Origin: Leucoraja ocellata
Taxonomy: Eukaryota
NCBI GenBank assembly: GCA_036785375.1
Contig: JAWMAR010001303.1
Location: 62,001 to 126,000 of the forward strand
Length of the DNA: 64,000 bases
Direction of reading: 5' to 3'
The position numbers and the translations under genes are program-made. Shown here piece by piece: positions 1,745 to 60,445 of the stretch (positions are counted from its first letter, which is position 1; each line of letters begins with the position of its first letter). The notes beneath the pieces are model-generated. The model worked only from the letters and a program-made list of their open reading frames with translations. It had not been told where the DNA came from and made no database searches.

Positions 1745-3080
1745 GACAAGAAGGAATTGCAGATGCTGAAAAAATTGAAAGCAGCCAAAAAATGCTGGAG
1801 AAACTCAGCGGGTGAGGCAGCATCTATGCAGAAAAGGAGTAGACAACGTTTCTGGTCGAGAATATGAGGTGTTGTTCGTCCAATTGTTCCTCCCATTCTG
1901 AATCTGACCTCTCTGTCCTGGGCCTCCTCCATTGCCAGAGTGATGCCCAGTGCAAATTGGAGGAACAACACCTCATATTTTACTTGAGTAGTTAACACCC
2001 CAGCGGTATAAACATTGACATCTAATTTCAGAGTCAGAGTCAGAGTCAGAGTCAATTTAATTGTCATTTGGACCCCTGGAGGTCCAAACGAAATGCCGTT
2101 TCTGCAGCCATACATTACACACAAATAGACCCAAGACACAACATAATTACATTTTACATAAACATCCATCACAATAGCTGTGATGGAGGCCAAATAAACT
2201 TATCTCTCCACTGCACTCTCCCCCCCCCCGATGTCAGAGTCAAAGTCATAGCCCCCGGCTGGCGATGGCGATTGTCCCGCGGCCATTAAAGCCACGCCGG
2301 GTGGTGCGAGGTCGCACACCGGGTCTTGGTGTTAGAGCCCCCGGTGTGCGCTCGCAGAGTCCGCGGCCATTCCAGCCGCGCGGGGCGGTGATGTCAGGCC
2401 CCGCTCCAGGAGCTCTTCGACCCTGCAACTCGGGCGGGAGAATTCGCCGTTGCAGGAGCCCTGAGAAGCGGTCTCCCTCCAGGGAGCCGCGGGCTCCCGA
2501 TGCCGTCGTCCGCAGACCCGCAGCAGCAGCCTCCGACTCTCCGGTAGCATCAGCAGCAGCAGCAGCGGCAACGCTCCTCCACCGCTCCGGACTCGGCCAG
2601 CCCCGCGACGGCAACGGTGAGTCGGCACCAGAGTCCCCGGCTTCTTCCTGTTGGAGGCCGCTCCTCGTTGCGGCCTCAACGACACCTGAGACCCGACGAG
2701 AAAAGGTCGGGTCTCCAGTGCAGGGAGAGATTCAAAAAGTTTACCCCCCCCCCTCCCACCCCACCCCCGCCCCCCCCCCACACACACCCCAACATAAAAT
2801 AACAAAAACTACATAAAAACACAGACAAAAAATAATAAAAACGCGGACAGGCTGCAGAGGCCGCTGCTGGCCAGAGCCGCGCTGCCTACCGGATATTCTG
2901 GTAGTCCTTGCTTTCTCCCTCCTTCCCCTTCCCCTTCCCAGCTCTCTCACATAGCCTACTTTCTCTGCCTCTTCCTTTCTTTTTCCAGCCCCCCTCCGAC
3001 ATCAGTCGGAAGAAGGGTCTCGACCTGAGACGTCACCTACTCCTTTTCTCCATTGATGAGTTTCTCCAGCATTTTTTTGG
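1745..3080 (+). mobile_element. Penelope-like (GIY-YIG) non-autonomous element, split by the insertion at 2029-2885
   Basis: 1880-2030 encodes a KLEEQHLIFYL..P.G.NID GIY-YIG C-terminus. Inverted pLTR-like start at 1745-1860; terminal part 2895-3080 has a degenerate CTGAAGA..GAAAC motif. Confidence 0.7.
2029..2885 (-). mobile_element. Non-autonomous SINE-like element with Rex1/Babar-like 3' tail
   Basis: (GACTCT)n tail, ATTTCGTT-hairpin-AATGACAAT end, GC-rich core, T-rich/G-run 5' part shared with other copies in the window. Confidence 0.7.
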
Positions 3081-4279
3081 CTGTTTAATTGGAAAAAATA
3101 AAAGCTACATTATTTTACCTTAATGACTTCTGTGACTTCAAGCATGACCTGCCATGTCTGTCTGGAACATGTTACCCATGAAAGTAAAGGATATGATCAT
3201 TTTCATTTTCTAAGTCTCAAGATCACCCAGGTTTTTGGTGCTATTTCATGCCTACCTGAGAGCTTTCAGTGTGCTTACACAATATGGAACGCCTTTCAAA
3301 TTTCTCACTCAAGGCAAGCAATCTTTCCTTGAGTAAAGCCTACAGGAAAAGACAAGGTAGACCGGTGGAATTGTTTGAATTGCAGACTTCCCCAAAGTGC
3401 AACCATGGAAATACTTCATTTACGTTGTTACAGAAAGCTCTCGAACAACCTACCAGGAATATAAGGCTGTAGTCCTGGAGGGTATTCCTTCATCTTATAT
3501 TTATTTTACACTAAACACATTATCAATATGTCTTATCAACTTTAAGGATCTATGTACATATACAGCCATCTGTTCCTGCATGTATTTTAAAAGTAAATTG
3601 TCTTTTTAATCTTCTAGAATAAATCACATATCAATTCTCTGCATCACATTTCATAGTTAACATCTGCCCATTCTGCCAGGTTATCTATATCCTTTGTGCA
3701 GACCTGCACTATCCTCCTCTTTGTTTAATGTAGCTGCAAGTGTATACCATCTGGAGAGTTTGAAATATTACTCATTACTAATGCCAAAGTCCTTTCTTAT
3801 ATGTAGTAAAATAAGTATATCTCTACTAAATCAGTCTGAAGAAGGGTTGCCTATGTCATTCGTTCCATAGGTGCTGCTGCATCCACTGAGTTTCTCCAGC
3901 ATTTCTGTGTACCTATACCTCTACTAATTCCTGAGAAGTATCTTACTCCACCTTCCTCCAATATGAAAGAGTTATAACATGCTTTCTAACCTTAGAAATT
4001 CCTTTTATGCACACCATGTCTTCCACAACTATGCATTCATTAACTTATTTGTAAAATGATCCCTGTGCTTCTGCCTATCGATTATTACTGCCTATCAATT
4101 ATACAACCATAAAAGCTATAGGTTCCCTTTTCACATTTCAGATTACTCCAGTTTATTTTAGAAAATGAAGTTAACCATTAACCATTAACCATTAATTGAA
4201 CATGACCATTACCCCATAATTTAAATTCCTTAGCTACTATGACAGAGATCTGGGAGTACAGGTATGAATTGCTCATTCT

Positions 4280-14250: not shown

Positions 14251-14464
14251 ATGACAGTAAACTTTCTTGAATCTACTCACAAGGCTGAGCACGGCCTCTC
14301 ATCTGCGGGGCTGCCGCAGTGAGTAGCACTTCCGCAATCAGCATGACCTCTGCACTTAGTGGAAGATACGCAATCAGCATGACCTCCGCACTTAGCGGAA
14401 GTTACGCATCAGCGTGACCTGTCCACTCAGCCTAAGTTATGGAATGAGCGGGTCCATTGGATTA

Positions 14465-15030
14465 ATCACAGTGGGGGCTAAGAAATCATTTATTCCTTGC
14501 AAACACAGTGGGGGCTGAGAAACAATGTATTCCTTGCAAACACAGTGGGGGCTGAGAAACCATTTATTCCTCGGAAACACAAAGGGGGCAGAGAAACCAT
14601 TTATTCCTTGCAAACACAGTGGGGGCTGAGAACATATTTGTTCCTTGCAAACAGTGGGGGCTAACAAACCATTTATTGCAAGGACATTAAGGGTTAACCA
14701 ATCATCATTTATTGCAACCACATCGCGCGGTAACAAAGCATTTATTGCATGCACATAAATGGTTATCCAATCATCATTTATTGTAACCACATTGCGGGGC
14801 AACAAAGCATGTATTGCAAACGCATTAAGGGTTAACCAATCTTCATTTATTGCAAACAAATTGCGGGGTAACAAAGCATTTATTGCAAGTACATAAAGGG
14901 TTAACCAATCATCATTTATTGCAACCACATTGAGGGGTAATAAAGCATTTATTGCAAGCACATAATGGGTAAATAAATCATCATTTATTGCAACCACGTG
15001 GGGTGACAAAGCATAATTTGTTGCAACCAC
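14465..15030. repeat. Minisatellite: ~41-bp units followed by ~75-bp higher-order units
   Basis: Units atttattccttgcaaacacagtgggggctgagaaa, then alternating ~37/38-bp subunits with the core catttattgcaa. Confidence 0.9.
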
Positions 15031-15779
15031 ATAGCAGTCTCACAGTTCAGTAGACACACAGTTCAGTTGAATCACAGCAGAATCTCCCTTGTGATCTTCC
15101 AGAGTGACTGCCTCATGTCCAGGCATCTGGGGTTTTATAGTCCTGCCCCCCCCCCCCCTCCCCCGGTAGGGGCGTTACCTTCATCATGGTAATTAACAGG
15201 CGAGGGGACCAATCAGCTGATCTCAAGATTTTTTCAACATTCATAACTTTTTTATTTTTCAGCGATCGGAAAAATCCTTGGGGCTGCCGCAGTGTAGGAG
15301 GATTGAGAGTAAGATGGCCCAAAATAGTAGCAGTATAGGGTAGTGTTTTTTCTAAAATCAATTAATAGTGTAGATACGAAGTGGTCAAGATGAGACTTTT
15401 AGTTATATAGATTTCACATAATGATCCCTTAGGCTCGCTGAATTCAGCCTGCGAAGAATATTTTCCATTCCAAGAAAAGATGTGCTCTCATCGTAATGAA
15501 TATCAATCTAAGATCTCATTTTATACACATTATTCCTGTATCTTTTCTGGCTCCAATTAAGTTATTGATTAAAATACAAAATGTGTTTATTTGCTGTAGT
15601 TTCCCTTGGAATAAAATCATAGAATCATGTGGTATGGGCACTCAATATCAAAGATACATAGATACATAGACAATAGGTGCAGGAGTAGGCCATTTGGCCC
15701 TTTGAGCCAACACCACCATTCAATATAATCATGGCCCACTGACTCCATGTTAATTATCAAGCATCCATTTTTACACTAG

Positions 15780-32240: not shown

Positions 32241-32661
32241 CAATCAAAAATTACACAAAACAGAAAACATAACTACTGTACCTAATCACTGTGGGTTCGA
32301 TCCTCGTATATGCCTGATCAAACACTGGGCCTCGCTCAAACAGAGACACTCCAGAAGGTTACGCAGTCCTAAGCGCTCTCCCAGAAGATCGACACAGGAC
32401 CTCATGGTAGTAGACTTTTATAGGTCCCCGGACCTCGAGGGGTCAAACTGTAAATCAGTGCATGCTCCTTTAACATAGTGACCTCACCACTACTAACCAC
32501 TCCCCATTATCTTCAGTATAATTGTAGCCTCCCCACCGCTATCTCTCTCTCTCTCTAGCTCCAGTGACAGACCACGGACAGCTAGGGCACAGTGTGTGTA
32601 TTATAACAATGTTTAAAATAAACTAGTAGTGAAGACATCATGTGTTTGACAAGTCTTTACA

Positions 32662-32703
32662 TGGTGTCAGAAGTGAGATACGAACCCACGCCTCCAATCG
32701 GAG
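32662..32703 (+). promoter_or_regulatory. Extended primer-binding site: complement of the 3' 42 nt of tRNA-Leu including CCA
   Basis: tggtgtcagaagtgagatacgaacccacgcctccaatcggag vs the reverse complement of vertebrate tRNA-Leu (TGGTGTCAGAAGTGGGATTCGAACCCACGCCTCC..GGAG, recalled). Confidence 0.88.
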
Positions 32704-32720
32704 CATGCACTGATCTACAT

Positions 32721-32910
32721 CCTGACCGCCGCTCTTCCTTGCCGGTTGGTGCTGCGCCCTACTTCCTAAACTGGGATGAACTTGTGCTGCACGACGGCGT
32801 GGTGGTGAAGGGACACAAGGTTGTGGTGCCTGCTGCGTTGTGGGACCACTATTTCCAAACTTCCCACAGCGGCCATCCCGGGGCCGAGGCTACTCTGTCC
32901 CAGGCCCAGC
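32721..32910 (+). pseudogene. Gypsy integrase N-terminal region (partial Zn-binding domain), displaced upstream of RT
   Basis: PDRRSSLP..PYF..DEL..DGVV.KG..VVVP.AL..H.GHPG in ORF 32640-32984. Confidence 0.85.
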
Positions 32911-33790
32911 CACTGTCTTCTCTGTCCTCGATGCCAAGAGCTCTTTCTGGCAGATTCCGCTGGATGAACGTTCCTCCTTCCTGACCACCTTCAGCACACC
33001 TTTCGGCAGATTCCATTTCCTCCGCATGCCTTTCGGGAGCAATTCTGCCACCAAGGTTTTCCAGCGCACCATGGAGCAGCTGTTTGCAGGTCTGCCGTGT
33101 GCCATCATAGTCGATGACATCCTGGTGTACGTGAGGGACGTCGCCGAGCACGACGTCCACCTTCGCCAAGTCCTGGATAGGGCTCAGGCGGTTAACCTCA
33201 AACTCAACCCCAAGAAGTGCCGTTTCCACGTCCCGGAAGCCACATACGTGGGCCATGTCTTCACGGCTGAGGGTCTGAAGCCAGACCCACAGAAGACAGC
33301 TGCGGTCTCGGGGATGCCCGCTCCGACCGACGTGCCCAGCCTGCAGCACTTTCTGGGCATGGTGAACTACCTGGGGAAATTCATTCCCGACCTCAGTGAG
33401 CTGAGTGCACCCCTGAGGGAACTGTCCAAGAAGGACACTGCCTGGGTTTGGTTTCCGCACCATCAGACGGCTTTCGAAGCCCTGAATTCCCAGCTGGTTC
33501 GCGCCTCTACTCTCAAGTTCTTCGACTTGAAGCGCCCTATCGTCCTCACCTGCGATGCCTCGAAGTTCGGTCTCGGTGCCGCCTGCCTGCAGCTCTACGA
33601 CGGCCTGCAACTGCCTGTCTCCTACGCTTCCCGCACCATGACCCCTGCTGAGCAGCGTTACGCTCAGATTGAGAAGGAGCTCCTTGCCGTGGTGTTTGCC
33701 TGCTCGAAGTTCAAGGATTACATTCTGGGCAACACCTTCACTATTGAGACCGACCACCAGCCACTGGTCACGATCCTAAATAAACCTCCA
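32909..33790 (+). pseudogene. Gypsy reverse transcriptase-RNase H fragment (open frame)
   Basis: FSVLDAKSSFWQIPL, RMPFG, IIVDDIL, CDASKFGLGA, YAQIEKELLAVVFAC, ETDHQPL. Confidence 0.96.
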
Positions 33791-34475
33791 CAATATTTCC
33801 CGTGACCCTGCCCTGGGCTCGCCTGCACAGTGGCTCATGTCCCGCACCACACGCCCTCTGATCCCTGTCTCCCAGTGATCCCTAAAGCCCATGGTCCTCA
33901 GCCCTGCTGCTGTCCAAGAGCGCATTGCCCAGAAACAGGCTATCCAGAAGCGCTCCCATGACAGGTCCTGCCGTCCCCTTCCATGTATTTTCCCGAACCA
34001 GGTGGTCCGGATGCAGTCCCCCTCTGGACACTACAGGCTGGCTGTTGTCGTCGGCTCTGCGGGCTCTCCGCGGTCGTACCTAGTTGACTACGAGGGTACC
34101 ATATACCGCCGGTCCCGCCAGCATTTGCTGCTGGTCGACGAGCCCGCTCCGCGTCCTGCTGTCCCTTTTGCCCCTCCGGTTGCTTCCTCTCTGCCCACCA
34201 CTCCTCGCCTGCCCCGGACTCTGCCTTCTCAGCTCTTTGTGCCCGTTCTCCCACTGCCACTCCTGGTCCCCCCACGCCTCCCTCGCCCATTCGCATGCCT
34301 GCGGCGGTGCCCGTTTCTCCTCCCCGGTCTCCTTGTCCTTCCTTCTCCTGCACGTTCCCCTGTCACCGCTCCTGCTCTTGTCCCTGCCATTCCTTTGGAG
34401 GAGGGGGAGGGCGGCCTGCGTACCCACTCTGGGCGGTTGGTCAAGCCGCCTGTACGTTACGGGGAGTTTGCTTGA
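33785..34475 (+). pseudogene. Gypsy integrase C-terminal region
   Basis: LHNISRDPALGSPAQWLMSRTTR, then QKRSHDRS..PRSYLV..YRRSRQHL and terminal THSGRLVKPPVRY. Confidence 0.85.
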
Positions 34476-35270
34476 ATGTTTAACTGTTTCCTGCCGATGT
34501 ACGCGCGGGTTTGTTTCTAGCGTATGAATCGTGGTCGCGCTGTCACTATTGTCATGCTTTGTTTTCCAAGGGGAAGGATGTAGATCAGTGCATGCTCCTT
34601 TAACATAGTGACCTCACCACTGCTAACCACTCCCCATTATCTTCAGTATAATTGTAGCCTCCCCACCTCTATCTCTCTCTCTAGCTCCAGTGACAGACCA
34701 CGGACAGCTAGGGCACAGTGTGTGTATTATAGCAATGTTTGAAATAAACTAGTAGTGAAGACATCATGTGTTTGACAAGTCTTTACACAAACCACATGGG
34801 GCGGTCTCTTTACAGTCCAATAACAAATATTGATTAACCCCATTAATGACAGACATTTCCCTGACCCAATAATAAAGTGGCTAATACATTGTATTCAAAC
34901 AGTTTTTCTGAGAGAAACGAACATCGCAAAATGTGCCCTGATATTCATGAAAACCAGACAAGGCTCAATACTTAATCAAATCAACATCCAGGAAAGGAAA
35001 GCTTTGCAACATTATTTACAATATGTATGTTTGGTTTGCATTCATCCAATCCATTCTATGCATTTTGCACCTAATTGTCAGGGTCTGCAGATAATCCTAT
35101 TCTTTTCCAGCAGCTCAGATCTAGGCTCTAGACAAACTGGCACCATTCAGCAGCTTGTCCCATTTCTACAGTAAGCACTTTTAAATTAACCAAATGGCCT
35201 AGCAGCCCAGAAGCCTTTACTCAATTTTAGGGTCCTAGCCTCTTTAATTTGGGTCAGGATTATCATTACA

Positions 35271-39319: not shown

Positions 39320-39785
39320 ATCGGCGACTGTTATATGAGGAAAGATTGAAAAGACTAGGCTTGTATTCCCTGGAGTTTAGAAGGATGCGGGGGGATCTTA
39401 TAGAAACATATAAAATTATAAAAGGACCGGACAAGGTAAATGTAGGAGAAATGTTCCCAATGTTGGGCGAGTCCAGAACCAGGGGCCACAGTCTTAAAAT
39501 AAAGGGGAGGCTATTTATGACTGAGGTGAGGAAAAACTTCTTCACCCAGAGAGTTGTGAATTGGTGGAATTCCCAGCCACAGAGGGCAGTGGAGGCCAAA
39601 TCACTGGGTGGATTTCAGAGAGATTTAGATAGAGTTCTAGGAGCTAGTGGAATTGAGGGATATAGGGAGAAGGCAGGCATGGGTTATTGATTGGAAACAA
39701 TCAGCCATGATCACAATGAATGGTGGTGCTGGCTCAAAGGGCTGAATGGCCTCCTCCTGCACCTATTTTTCTATGTTTCTATGAT
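39320..39785 (+). mobile_element. CR1 3' end
   Basis: ORF 39283-39690 (YEERLKRLGLYSLEFRRMRGDLIETYKI), UTR hairpin and tttctatg tail. Confidence 0.95.
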
Positions 39786-40360
39786 TCAGAACTGGCTTAT
39801 TCAGAGAAGGTAAGGGTTGTGGTGGAAGGTAGATATTCTGGCTGGAGGCCTGTGACTAGTGGAGGTCAGGAGGGAACTGTGCTGTTTGTGATATATATCA
39901 ATGGGCTGGATGTAAATGAGGAAGGGTTGGTGAGTAAGTTTGCTGATGATATAAAAATTGGAGGAATTGTAGGAAGGCTGTCAGAAGATATAGCTGGATA
40001 TAGACCAGATGCAGACATGGGTGGAGAAATGGCAGATGGAGTTTAGCCTAAGGAAGTGTGAGATGTTGCACTTTGGAAGATCGATAAGGAGAGAGTAACC
40101 CATGCCTGCCTTCTCCCTATATCCCTCAATTCCACTAGCTCCTAGAACTCTATCTAAATCTGACAGCATTGATAAAATGGAATGGTCACAATCTTTTTCC
40201 CAAAATATGTCCAGATTTAGAGAGCAGAGTTTTAATGTGCAAGTGGGAAGATTTAAAGTGAAATGGGGGACAATGTCTTCACATAGAGCGTGATGTGTGT
40301 CTGGAGTGAACTGCCAAAGGAAATGTAAAATGCAATGTTTAATGGACATTTAGACAGATA
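39786..40360 (+). mobile_element. Older CR1 RT fragment containing a 66-nt inverted insertion
   Basis: RVVVEG..WRPVTSG..LFVIYIN..SKFADD. Confidence 0.8.
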
Positions 40361-43989: not shown

Positions 43990-46218
43990 CATAGTGTTGT
44001 CCAATGAACCAGATATGATAAGAGAACTCAAGGTAAAGGAAACGCTTGGAGGTAGTGATCATAATATGATTAGTTTTAATCTGCAGTTTGAGAAGGAGAA
44101 CGTTAAATCGGATGTGTCAGTGATGCAGTTGAACAAAGGGGACTATGAAGGCATGAGAGGGGAGCTGGCCAATGTAGACTGGAAAGGGATCCTAGCAGGA
44201 AAGACGATGGAACAGCAATGGCAGGAATTTCTGGGCATAATCTGGAAGACGCAGGATCATTTCATTCCAAAAAAGGGGAAAGATTCTAAAGGGAGTAGGA
44301 GGCAACCGTGGCTGACAAGAGAAGTTAGGGATAGAATAAAACTAAAAGAAAAGATGTATAACATAGCAAAGAGTAGCCAGAAGCCAGAGGATTGGGAAAC
44401 TTTCACAGGACAACAGAAGGAAACAAAACGGGGAATACGGGCTGAAAAGATGAAGTATGAAGGGAAGCTGGCCAGGAATATAAAGAAGGACAGTAAAAAC
44501 TTCTTTAGATAGTTGAGGGAAAAAGAGTAGCAAAGTCAAATGTGGGTCCCTTGAAGGCAGTCACGGGTGAAATTATTATGGGCAACAAGGTAATGGCAGA
44601 AGAGTTGAATAGGTATTTTGGATCTGTCATCTCTAAGGAAGACACAAACAATCTCCCAGATGTACTGGAGGACAGAGGATCTAAGGGGGTAGAGGAACTG
44701 AAATAAATGTTCATTAGGCGAGAAATAGTATTGGGTAGGCTAATAGGACTGAAGGATGATAAATCCCCTGGGCCTGATGGTCTGCATCCCAGGGTCCTCA
44801 GGGAGGTAGCTCTAGAAATAGTGGACGCATTGGTGATAATTTTCCAATGTTCAATAGATTCAGGATCAGTTCCTGTGGATTGGAGGAAAAGCTAATGTTA
44901 TCCCACTTTTCAAGAATGGAGCGAGAGAGAAAACAGGGAATTCCAAACCAGTTAGCCTGACTTCAGTGGTGGGAAAGATGCTGGAGTCAATTATTAAAGA
45001 GGTAATAATGGGGCATTTGGATAGCAATAAAATAATTAGTCCAAGTCAACATGGATTTATGAAAGGGAAATCATGCTTGACTAATCTTCTGGAATTTTTC
45101 GAGGATGTGACAAGTAAAATGGATGAAGGGGTGCCAGTGGATGTAGTGTATCTAGAATTTCAGAATTAGAGCACATGGTATTGGGGGTAGGGTGTTGACA
45201 TGGATAGAAAATTGGTTGGCAGACCGGAAGCAAAGAGTAGGAGTGAATGGGTCCTTGTCAGAATGGCAGGCAGTGGCGAGTGGAGTGCCGCAATGCTCGG
45301 CGTTGGGGGCCGCAACAGTTTACCATATATATTAATGATTTGGAAGAGGGAATTAGGAGCAACACTAGCAAGTCTGTGGATGACACAAAGCTGGGTGGCA
45401 GTGTGAACTGTGAAGAGGATGTTAGGAGGGTGCAGGGTGACCTGGACAGGTTGAGTGAGTGGGGTAATATAGTGGGGTAGTATAATATAGATAAATGTGA
45501 GGTTATCCACTTTGGCGGCAAAAACAAGGGGGCAGATTATTATCTCAATGGTTAGGTTAGGTAAGGGGGAGGTGCAGCAAGAGCTGTGCGTCCTTGTACA
45601 AGAGGATTTCAGTATAGGAATAAATAAGTTCTTCTGCAGTTGTATAGGACTCTGGTGAGACCACATCTGGAGTATTGCGTACAGTTTTAGTCTCCTAATT
45701 TGAGGAAGGGCATCCTTGTGATTGACGCATTGCAGCATAGGTTCACGAGATTCATCCCTGGGATAGCGGGACTGTCATATGAGGAAAGATTGAAAAGACT
45801 AGGCTTGTATTCACTGGAGTTTAGAAGCATGAGGGGATATCTTATAGAAACATATTCAATTATATAAGGCAGGAAAAGCTAGATGCAGGAAAAATGTTCC
45901 CAATGTTGGGTGAGTCCAGAACCAGTCTTAGTATAAAGGGGAGGTCATTAAGTCTGAGGTGAGTAAATACTTTTTCACCTAGAGAGTTGTGAATTTATGG
46001 AATTCCCTGCCACAGAGGGCAATGGAGGCCAAGTCACTGGATGGATTTAAGAGAGAGTTAGATAGTGCTCTAGGGGATAGTGGAGTCGAGGGATATGGGG
46101 AGAAGGCAAACACTGTTTATTGATAGGGGTCGATCAGCCATGATCACAATGAATGGCGGTGCTGGCTCGAAGGGCCGAATGGCCTCCTCCTGCACCAATT
46201 TTCTATGTTTCTATGTTT
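43990..46218 (+). mobile_element. CR1 ORF2 (end of EN, RT) and 3' end, disabled
   Basis: LGGSDHNMISF, KSPGPDGLHP, QHGFMKGKSCLTNLLEFFE, VDDTKLGG; tttctatg tail. Confidence 0.95.
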
Positions 46219-46899
46219 TTATAACATTTATGGCAAGCTATTACAAAAAAAATTTCAGGAAGAGAATTCATGGCTATTTTTTCTAAGTATATTAGATGAT
46301 CCACTTGTTTAAGAGTTGCTTTTTGATTTTGACATCCAAATGGAAAATGATGGCAAAAAAAAGACAAATGATTTGATATACAAAAATAAAATAAAGCATA
46401 TGTTTAAAATTTGAAATAAAAATAGGAAATTTTGGAAATATTCAGCAAATCAGGAAGTATTTCTGAAGGCAGAAATAGAGTTTAAAATTAAGGTCACTCC
46501 ATCCTAACAATAATATGTATTTGTCCTCATCATTAAACTGGCAGTTTGTTGCTTTAGAAAAGTTCACAGCTTGTTTCAAACTTATTTGGATAAGTTTGTG
46601 CATATTTTTGTTTTAACATGCCTTTTTTCCCCAAAATATTTCTAAATTTCCATTATATGGGTATGTTGGTGGGGGAAAATTGACATTTACGATTTTGGTG
46701 GAGGTTGTGATCTAGTATATCTGCACAGCCAAACTAAACTAAACAGAGAAAGAGAGGTGAATAATATTCCAGAACAAATTAAAAAAAGGAGAAAAAAAGA
46801 ATAGAAATAACCATATAACCATATAACAATTACAGCATGGAAACAGGCCATCTCGACCCTTCTAGTCCGTGCCGAACACGTATTCTCCCCTAGTCCCAT

Positions 46900-59269: not shown

Positions 59270-60445
59270 GTATATGAAAGTAAGCATGCAGGTACAGCAG
59301 GCAGTGAAGAAAACGAATGGCATGTTGGCCTTTATAACAAGAGGAATCGAGTATAGGAGCAAAGAGGTCCTTCCGCAGTTGTACAGAGCCCTAGTGAGAC
59401 CACACCTGGAGTATTGTGTGCAGTTTTGGTCCCCTAATTTGAGGAAGGACATTCTTGCTATTGCGGGAGTGCAGCGTAGGTTTACAAGGTTAATTCCCGG
59501 CATGGCGGAACTGTCATATGCTGAGAGAATGGAGCAGCTGGGCTTGTACACTCTGGAGTTTAGAAGGATGAGAGGATATCTCATTGAAACATATAAGATT
59601 GTTAAGGGTTTGGACACGCTAGAGGCAGGAAACATGTTCCCGATGTTGGGGAGTCCAGAACCACGGGCCACAGTTTAAGAATAAAGGGCTGTCCCACGAG
59701 CATGCGACTCCATGCGGCAAGCGTGACCTAATGTGGTCCTTGAGCCGTACAGCCTCACGGGACCGGTCCCACTTCGATCGCCGGAGCCATATGGAGTTGT
59801 GCGGAGCTGGTCCCGACATCGCGCGGGACTCCGGAAAACAGACCGTGTTCAAAAATTCCATGCGGCAACGGCCTGTCGTCCCGCAGCCACCTCGACAGGT
59901 GTGCGCAGTGTCTCAATGCCATACACAGCCTCTTGACACCGTACGTCAGGCGAGAACTTCCCGCGGACTTCGCTCGAACTTCACGTCATTCACTCGACAT
60001 CCGCGCGGCCCCCGCTTCCGATTTGGTCGCGCTCGCCGCATGCAGGCGCATGCTGGTGGGACTGGCCCTGTACGGGGATCACTCGACCTCCGCGCGGCCC
60101 CCGCTTCCGGTTTGGTCTCGTTTGCCGCATGCAGGTCGCATGCTCATAGGCCAGGCCCTTTAGGAGTAAGCCATTTAGAACGGAGACAAGGAAACACTTT
60201 TTCTCACAGAGTGGTGAATGTGGAAATCTCTGCATTAGAGGATGGTGGAGGCAGGCTCTCTGGATGCTTAGAGAGCTTGATAGGGCTCTTAAAAATAGCG
60301 GAGTCAGGGGATATGGGGAGAAGGCAGGAACGGGGTACTGATTGGGGATGATCAGCCATGATCACATTGAATGGCGGTGCTGGCTAGAAGGGCCGAATGG
60401 CCTATTCCTGCACCTATTGTCGATTGTCTATTGTCTATTGTCATT
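59270..60445 (+). mobile_element. CR1 3' part interrupted by a MITE; (CTATTGT)n tail
   Basis: ORF 59268-59678; CR1 resumes at 60163 (ggagtaagccatttag). Confidence 0.93.
59681..60162. mobile_element. PIF/Harbinger-type MITE inserted in CR1
   Basis: TIRs agggctgtcccacgagcatgcgact / ggtcgcatgctcataggccaggccct, flanked by TAA and TTA. Confidence 0.85.

Follow-up and report, generated by a model that had tools for sequence, protein, structure and literature searches.

The analysed window, a 64,000-nt stretch of the Leucoraja ocellata genome (assembly GCA_036785375.1, contig JAWMAR010001303.1, positions 62,001 to 126,000, forward strand), contains a deleted Gypsy-type LTR retrotransposon at 32449-34787. 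The element lies on the plus strand between identical 5-bp target-site duplications (TSDs; 32444..32448 and 34788..34792) and is bounded by a 213-bp 5′ LTR (32449..32661) and a 209-bp 3′ LTR (34579..34787) that differ by five substitutions and a 4-nt indel. A canonical 18-nt primer binding site (PBS) for tRNA-Leu (32662..32679) is followed by a further stretch copied from the T-arm and variable arm of tRNA-Leu(CAA), referred to here as the tail, which spans nt 19-42 counted from the first base of the PBS (32680..32703). The final 4 nt of the tail are common to the next part, a minus-strand fold-back segment (32700..32723) composed of the inverted first 20 nt of U3 and the last 4 nt of the polypurine tract (PPT) and identical at 24/24 positions to the reverse strand at the start of the 3′ LTR. 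Overlaps of 3, 7 and 4 nt then lead into three scrambled plus-strand segments running from pol to the 3′ end: an out-of-order piece of pol whose normal place is between RNase H and the integrase core (32721..32909), an RT and RNase H fragment with Pfam matches to RVT_1, RT_RNaseH and RT_RNaseH_2 (32903..33786) and the 3′ part of the internal region with the PPT at its end (33783..34578, PPT at 34568-34578). In the 4.8-kb family member L208, which serves only as a coordinate map, these segments correspond to 3379-3567, 2221-3104 and the region from 4059 onward, respectively. Gag, protease and the integrase core are absent from the window element.

The class assignment rests on several Ty3/Gypsy traits, namely direct LTRs with TG...CA ends, a 5-bp TSD, a tRNA PBS directly 3′ of the 5′ LTR and a PPT 5′ of the 3′ LTR. 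The pol order of L208 is protease-RT-RNase H-integrase according to Pfam matches to Asp_protease_2 (weak, below cut-off), RVT_1, RT_RNaseH and rve, an order that is rearranged in the window copy, and the three L208 ORFs gave no match to BEL-type or envelope Pfam families. Elsewhere, the window holds tandemly arrayed repeats of 37- and 69-nt period (14464-15032) and dispersed copies of a LINE-like 3′ end repeat (189-767, 39326-39791, 45536-46224 and 59275-60442), which we take to be typical of cartilaginous fishes.

The tail is a partial copy of a host tRNA-Leu(CAA) with two changes that recur in other copies. The 5′ LTR ends in CA and, as the first-pass annotation had described, is followed immediately by TGG and complementarity to tRNA-Leu. 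Its account of a 42-nt tRNA-Leu copy is accurate for 39/42 nt when host genes read from the same genome are used for comparison, the best template being the Leu(CAA) isodecoder of L105/L106, but the last 4 nt (32700-32703) are shared with the inverted LTR start and 38 nt are unambiguously tRNA-derived. The A at nt 19 (32680), where T is expected opposite A58 of the tRNA, was upheld against the host genes. Only one further mismatch had been recognized, at 32676; three mismatches exist in total, at nt 15 (32676), nt 19 and nt 36 (A for G at 32697). The last of these lies in the variable-arm loop, which had been taken to match and whose third base in fact differs from that of 23/23 Leu(CAA) genes, all of which have G in the orientation of the tail. 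The G-to-A change at nt 15 is private to the window copy. Its flank-sharing sister L002 has the gene's base at this position and carries the same nt 19 and nt 36 changes, which are therefore not assembly errors of one contig. A 31-nt pattern searched genome-wide returned 476 matches with at most one mismatch compared with 0 for the reversed control. ARAGORN found no tRNA gene in the window and Rfam gave nothing credible at 32300-35000, so the stretch represents a partial copy and not a gene.

Mismatches are strongly concentrated at nt 19. Across the genome, 192 loci match the 31-nt pattern exactly and 139 have a base other than T at nt 19 (139/331 tailed copies, 42%), while the other 30 positions together account for 145 changes with a mean of 4.8. 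These counts refer to loci, not events, and include flank-sharing duplicates; the non-T19 pattern also permitted G at nt 10, where 100/100 of the matches listed have A. A pattern that required T at nt 19 but left seven neighbours free gave 243 matches, 51 of them non-perfect. The enrichment over neighbouring positions expected from the first-pass annotation is thus present, with 139/331 versus 51/243 for the pool of seven neighbours, the latter being mostly CpG decay (p = 1e-7, or 2e-4 if the counts are halved to allow for duplicates). In a hand count of 100 among the matches listed, nt 16, 17, 18, 20, 21, 22 and 23 show 1, 2, 0, 5, 15, 0 and 2 changes, and because 5 + 15 of these fall at nt 20-21 the neighbour excess is attributed to the CpG located there. 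The non-CpG neighbours are changed in 5/500 observations among the matches listed (hand count), or about 1%. A hand count of 100 non-T letters among the matches listed gave A 62, C 20 and G 18 at nt 19, a transversion-led spectrum with transitions in 20/100 that is unlike ordinary decay. Given 42% against a background of about 1%, the nt 19 change of the window copy is very likely a misincorporation, the alternative being a chance mutation as at nt 15. The accessible text of one study describes m1A as causing RT arrest plus context-dependent misincorporation (PMC4787781). The mixed-letter mismatch opposite A58 observed here corresponds to one element of the m1A58 signature; as for another, arrest one base before A58, the match to the tRNA ends at nt 18 or no more than 4 nt from it in 44/75 unselected loci, a number to which ordinary PBS length contributes. 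Judging from its conservation in vertebrates, A58 is probably methylated in the host animal.

A second mismatch site is found at nt 36, opposite a variable-loop C. To the family loci we added 70 T19 and 70 non-T19 loci drawn from the matches listed and removed 180-nt-identical repeats, leaving 146 copies in 128 junction clusters, a sample that is stratified at nt 19 and unselected for nt 32 onward. In a strict test limited to tails of Leu(CAA) type with nt 32-35 and 37-41 exact and one copy per cluster, 48/65 events depart from the gene at nt 36 (A 37, T 8, C 3), compared with 0-3 events for each other position from 33 to 44. A looser count of 62/85, which includes at least one fold-back artefact (L004), was set aside in favor of the strict one. 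Genome-wide, in the context of nt 20-42, 131 loci are non-G and 63 are G, nine of the latter being the genes themselves, which gives 131/185 non-G. Tails passing nt 36 are of Leu(CAA) type in 81/85 cases and changes at nt 36 are found on both loop types. In addition, tails end at nt 35 in 14/115 cases versus 13/492 at nt 31-34, corresponding to a stop hazard of 0.12 versus 0.02-0.04 (p = 8e-5). No linkage between nt 19 and nt 36, as a single pool of unmodified tRNA would produce, was found, G36 being present in 7/39 T19 and 16/46 non-T19 events (p = 0.09).

Mismatch in 48/65 events combined with a stop peak one base earlier is the behavior associated with m3C47d/e2. Human and zebrafish Leu(CAG) and Ser carry m3C47d/e2 at a loop C, and Leu(CAA) is not among the tRNAs listed in the accessible portions of those reports (PMC5066629, PMC9072684, PMC11233606, 10.1101/2024.01.30.575011). 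The catalogued site is the second loop base of tRNA-Ser or Leu(CAG), whereas the C opposite nt 36 is the third of four loop bases of Leu(CAA), making it an analogous and not the catalogued site. We predict by analogy that this C carries m3C in the skate. The enzyme that writes variable-loop m3C had yet to be identified according to the accessible text of one report (PMC11233606). It is also possible, though rather unlikely, that the m1A58 footprint is real while nt 36 reflects C-to-U editing of the tRNA, another modification or site-specific deamination of the cDNA. The prevalence of G-to-A changes (37/48) is what C-to-U conversion predicts, and m3C47d is unreported on Leu(CAA) of human or zebrafish in the accessible text of these reports. 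However, T and C also occur (11/48), adjacent G positions are changed in only 4/107 cases, and the same C corresponds to the e2 position, the second loop base, in the local Leu(CAG) genes. The stops immediately before the site likewise speak against editing, since editing to U would not cause them.

The host tRNA-Leu genes found uniformly carry A58 together with the loop C. Probing for the 5′ half retrieved 23 intron-bearing Leu(CAA) copies, probably including some haplotype duplicates, and screening for copies without CCA retrieved six Leu(CAG) genes, five of the CAA genes and three decayed PBS copies. A host tRNA-Leu gene with T58, which would have offered a template for A at nt 19, was not found; A58 is present in 23/23 Leu(CAA) copies and in 6/6 Leu(CAG) genes found. 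The loop C opposite nt 36 is also kept in 23/23 Leu(CAA) copies, and intron-bearing gene-like sequences with another base at nt 36 gave 0 matches in the assembly, which may be incomplete. This possible incompleteness, together with a comparison based on one genome and a partial Leu(CAG) gene set, is what could be said for faithful copying from tRNA-Leu genes lost or absent from the assembly, such as T58 alleles or genes with other loops. We consider this explanation very improbable in view of the uniform gene set and of the three alternative letters seen at both sites and the nt 36 changes on both loop types, which would call for many lost genes; to our knowledge, A58 is moreover nearly invariant in tRNAs. 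Position 57 is changed in 11/23 Leu(CAA) gene copies (L108-L111, L117-L122 and L124), clustered on two contigs, and the apparent CpG decay at nt 20 of the tails could be partly derived from such variant genes.

Tail ends peak at further positions along the tRNA. At nt 48-50, the last of which faces G37, the stop hazard reaches 0.32-0.54, and the longest tails end by nt 54, with 0 of 128 events passing beyond. On human tRNA-Leu, m1A58, m3C47d and m1G37 yield both mutation and stop signals, and m1G37 on tRNA-Leu is reported to cause strong stops in vitro (accessible text of PMC5066629). An additional peak at nt 41-42 (27/128) could result from a hairpin of the new cDNA or from easily available microhomology. 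Three tails follow the spliced form of the tRNA for 2-4 nt and one follows the unspliced form for 3 nt, which tips the balance slightly towards mature (spliced) tRNA as the template.

Read-through tails are frequent and arose many times. Of 1715 loci with an exact 18-nt Leu PBS, at least 331 carry one. In an unselected sample consisting of the first 75 of these 1715 loci, 30 extend to nt 31 with at most two mismatches, 13 of those 30 being non-T19; the remainder comprises one long tail with a 1-nt gap and 44 untailed loci. The resulting share of 40% describes those PBS-bearing loci that survive and should not be read as a rate per replication cycle. A degenerate read-through search for other primer tRNAs gave 56 matches versus 20 for the control; the 30 inspected were mostly SINE-like or chance matches, with three decayed Leu tails and one tail with T19 that is presumably derived from tRNA-Pro.

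The first-pass annotation had raised the possibility that the long PBS is an inherited family feature. Retrieval of the LTR family (40 scored of 1376 candidates) yielded 30 loci, 13 of which are tailed with differing tails and junctions. T19 is present in 11/13 and A at nt 19 in 2/13, namely the window copy and its sister L002, while the untailed family loci are 3′ LTRs or have a plain 18-nt PBS. In several family members (L021, L024-L029), the PBS agrees with tRNA-Leu over the first 9 nt or so, beyond which these members share their differences. Across the 128 events, 121 adjoin an LTR-type CA end, and grouping by the last 80 nt of the LTR at 85% identity gives 65 groups, of which 41 contain non-T19 and 29 contain non-G36 copies. 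Descent of the long PBS from one or a few founder elements, with the mismatches added as later point mutations, would fit the private nt 15 change of the window copy and three junction clusters that combine the same junction with different nt 19 letters, and some tailed elements may indeed have moved again. It is nonetheless largely refuted and highly improbable, as many tail lengths and junctions are spread over the 65 LTR-end groups, family members with a plain 18-nt PBS exist, and neither the contrast between nt 19 and its non-CpG neighbours nor the low share of transitions among the matches listed resembles point mutation. The three clusters concerned are L046/L075, L151/L177 and L186/L192, the first also differing in isodecoder, and they represent either recurrent hot spots or re-copying of the tRNA by tailed elements in a later round. 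With T58 genes, neighbour enrichment and family inheritance all checked and none of them contradicting it, the earlier reading of the locus as a germline-fixed record of RT read-through is supported. That annotation had not covered nt 36, which is the stronger of the two footprints, nor the fold-back behind the tail or the extent of such tails across the genome.

The junctions beyond the tails lead mainly into element sequence. When searched with L208 ORFs only, the 128 junctions comprise 49 that continue in sense orientation to element ORFs within 120 nt, 10 antisense, six that repeat the U5 end (three with a TSD), five with an inverted piece only and 58 unclassified. Fold-back mini-elements of about 270 bp (L003/L006, L004/L005, L050 and L162) combine a single LTR and a tRNA tail with an inverted U3 tip, from which they gain a new CA end, and are flanked by perfect 5-bp TSDs. 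In L077, L087 and L167 the last 19-27 nt of U5 are repeated after the LTR and tail, directly before the flank, with the TSD located 204-207 nt upstream, and this U5-end repeat is a second way to regain an integrable end.

We consider it highly probable that the element RT ran about 20 nt past the 18-nt stop during plus-strand synthesis, misincorporating opposite two likely methylated bases (m1A58 and the predicted m3C), and that template switching rescued the product. Over-long plus-strand strong-stop DNA would be unable to pair with the minus-strand end and its 3′ end would therefore likely re-prime at a 3-7 nt match elsewhere. For the window element, whose segments and overlaps are directly observed, the likely order is that the U3 tip and PPT end were copied backwards and that three jumps within pol followed; by the logic of the established LTR replication cycle, these segments would stem from template switches inside the particle. 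The product kept or regained proper ends and was integrated, as documented by the TSDs, and the tail would have become double-stranded through copying before integration or repair after it, to be inherited from then on. Another polymerase, such as a LINE RT or host repair enzyme, might have written the tail on primer tRNA still attached to element DNA, and LINE-like ORFs and repeats, presumably of LINE origin, are plentiful in the window. This is very improbable, since the tails jump into their own element's sequence and the products have integrase-type CA ends and 5-bp TSDs, placing the event before integration with the element RT at hand.

Read-through by the element RT followed by rescue has partial counterparts in known systems. 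Pulsinelli and Temin reportedly described in 1991 deletions arising from strand-transfer errors in retroviral vectors. Those were single-cycle clones in culture, whereas the skate copies form a natural population large enough for per-position rates. HIV-1 RT halts chiefly in front of m1A58, positions 55, 54 and 37 giving minor products, and only the short products are held to be productive in the accessible text of the reports (PMC13191261, PMC8599865). The skate tails resemble this HIV-1 over-extension (P2-P5) in the 18-nt stop before m1A58 and in a minority that continues to later modified bases, position 37 among them, before stopping. They differ in that HIV-1 products past positions 54-55 are described there as non-productive and non-integrating, while skate tails of 31-54 nt were integrated with TSDs and are present as hundreds of germ-line copies with misincorporations. 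In particles of yeast Ty3 the first plus strand also copies the primer tRNA, but the strand that did so is discarded and tRNA sequence is not inherited in Ty1/Ty3 according to the accessible text (PMC5371799), unlike the skate strands, which were rescued and inherited (PMC5371799, PMC7472051). A review on mouse ERVs looked inside the 18-nt PBS for marks of tRNA modification and found none (PMC7472051); the footprints described here lie past nt 18. Prediction of modifications from RT misincorporation signatures is the principle of mim-tRNAseq (accessible text of PMC8062790). The tails share with DM-tRNA-seq, mim-tRNAseq and tRAM-seq data the site-specific mismatches and stops at m1A58, m3C47d/e2 and m1G37 of tRNA-Leu (PMC5066629, PMC8062790, 10.1101/2024.01.30.575011). 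Unlike those in vitro libraries, for which the accessible texts report such a modified C solely in Leu(CAG) and Ser, the present record was made in vivo, is inherited and points to Leu(CAA). Over-extension itself is known from HIV. Our literature search, which covered mainly the main text of open-access papers, found no account of LTR copies in a genome that bear modification footprints; isodecoder-level modification tables, for example for Leu(CAA), may bear on the m3C prediction.

We regard it as fairly probable that dead LTR retrotransposons constitute a heritable and datable archive of primer-tRNA chemistry, including m1A58, the m1G37 stop and an uncatalogued m3C on Leu(CAA), and that m1A58 is leaky for these Gypsy RTs with over-run strands routinely rescued. 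If so, modification maps of germ-line tRNA would be legible from genome sequence alone, allowing tRNA modifications to be mapped in animals without RNA sampling, and LTR dating could time the origin of a modification. The textbook m1A58 stop would become countable through loci with integrated tails, both in the full set of Leu PBS loci and in the unselected sample. The tails would reveal, position by position, how often an endogenous RT inserts a mismatch or stops in vivo, akin to a natural misincorporation sequencing of the germ-line primer tRNA. The predicted modified C on tRNA-Leu(CAA), if a new natural substrate, would limit the recognition rule of the variable-loop m3C writer. The tails also point to failed second strand transfer as a main source of deleted LTR elements in this genome.

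Two further observations concern individual junctions. For the L015 leader, some ordinary copies hold a 7-nt match to nt 28-34 of the tRNA copy right after the PBS, and some tails join the leader at this match, as seen in L151/L153 (L301) and L177/L178 (L302); L301 is still about 4.7 kb long and its LTR ends are 99% alike. A leader match of at least 6 nt, a feature seen post hoc, is present in 4/38 untailed loci. The match could be a landing pad akin to the lentiviral primer over-extension sequence or an older read-through fossil. In L207 (G000:C395, two places), two inverted tRNA tails of different isodecoder types meet at their tips, and each has C at nt 19.
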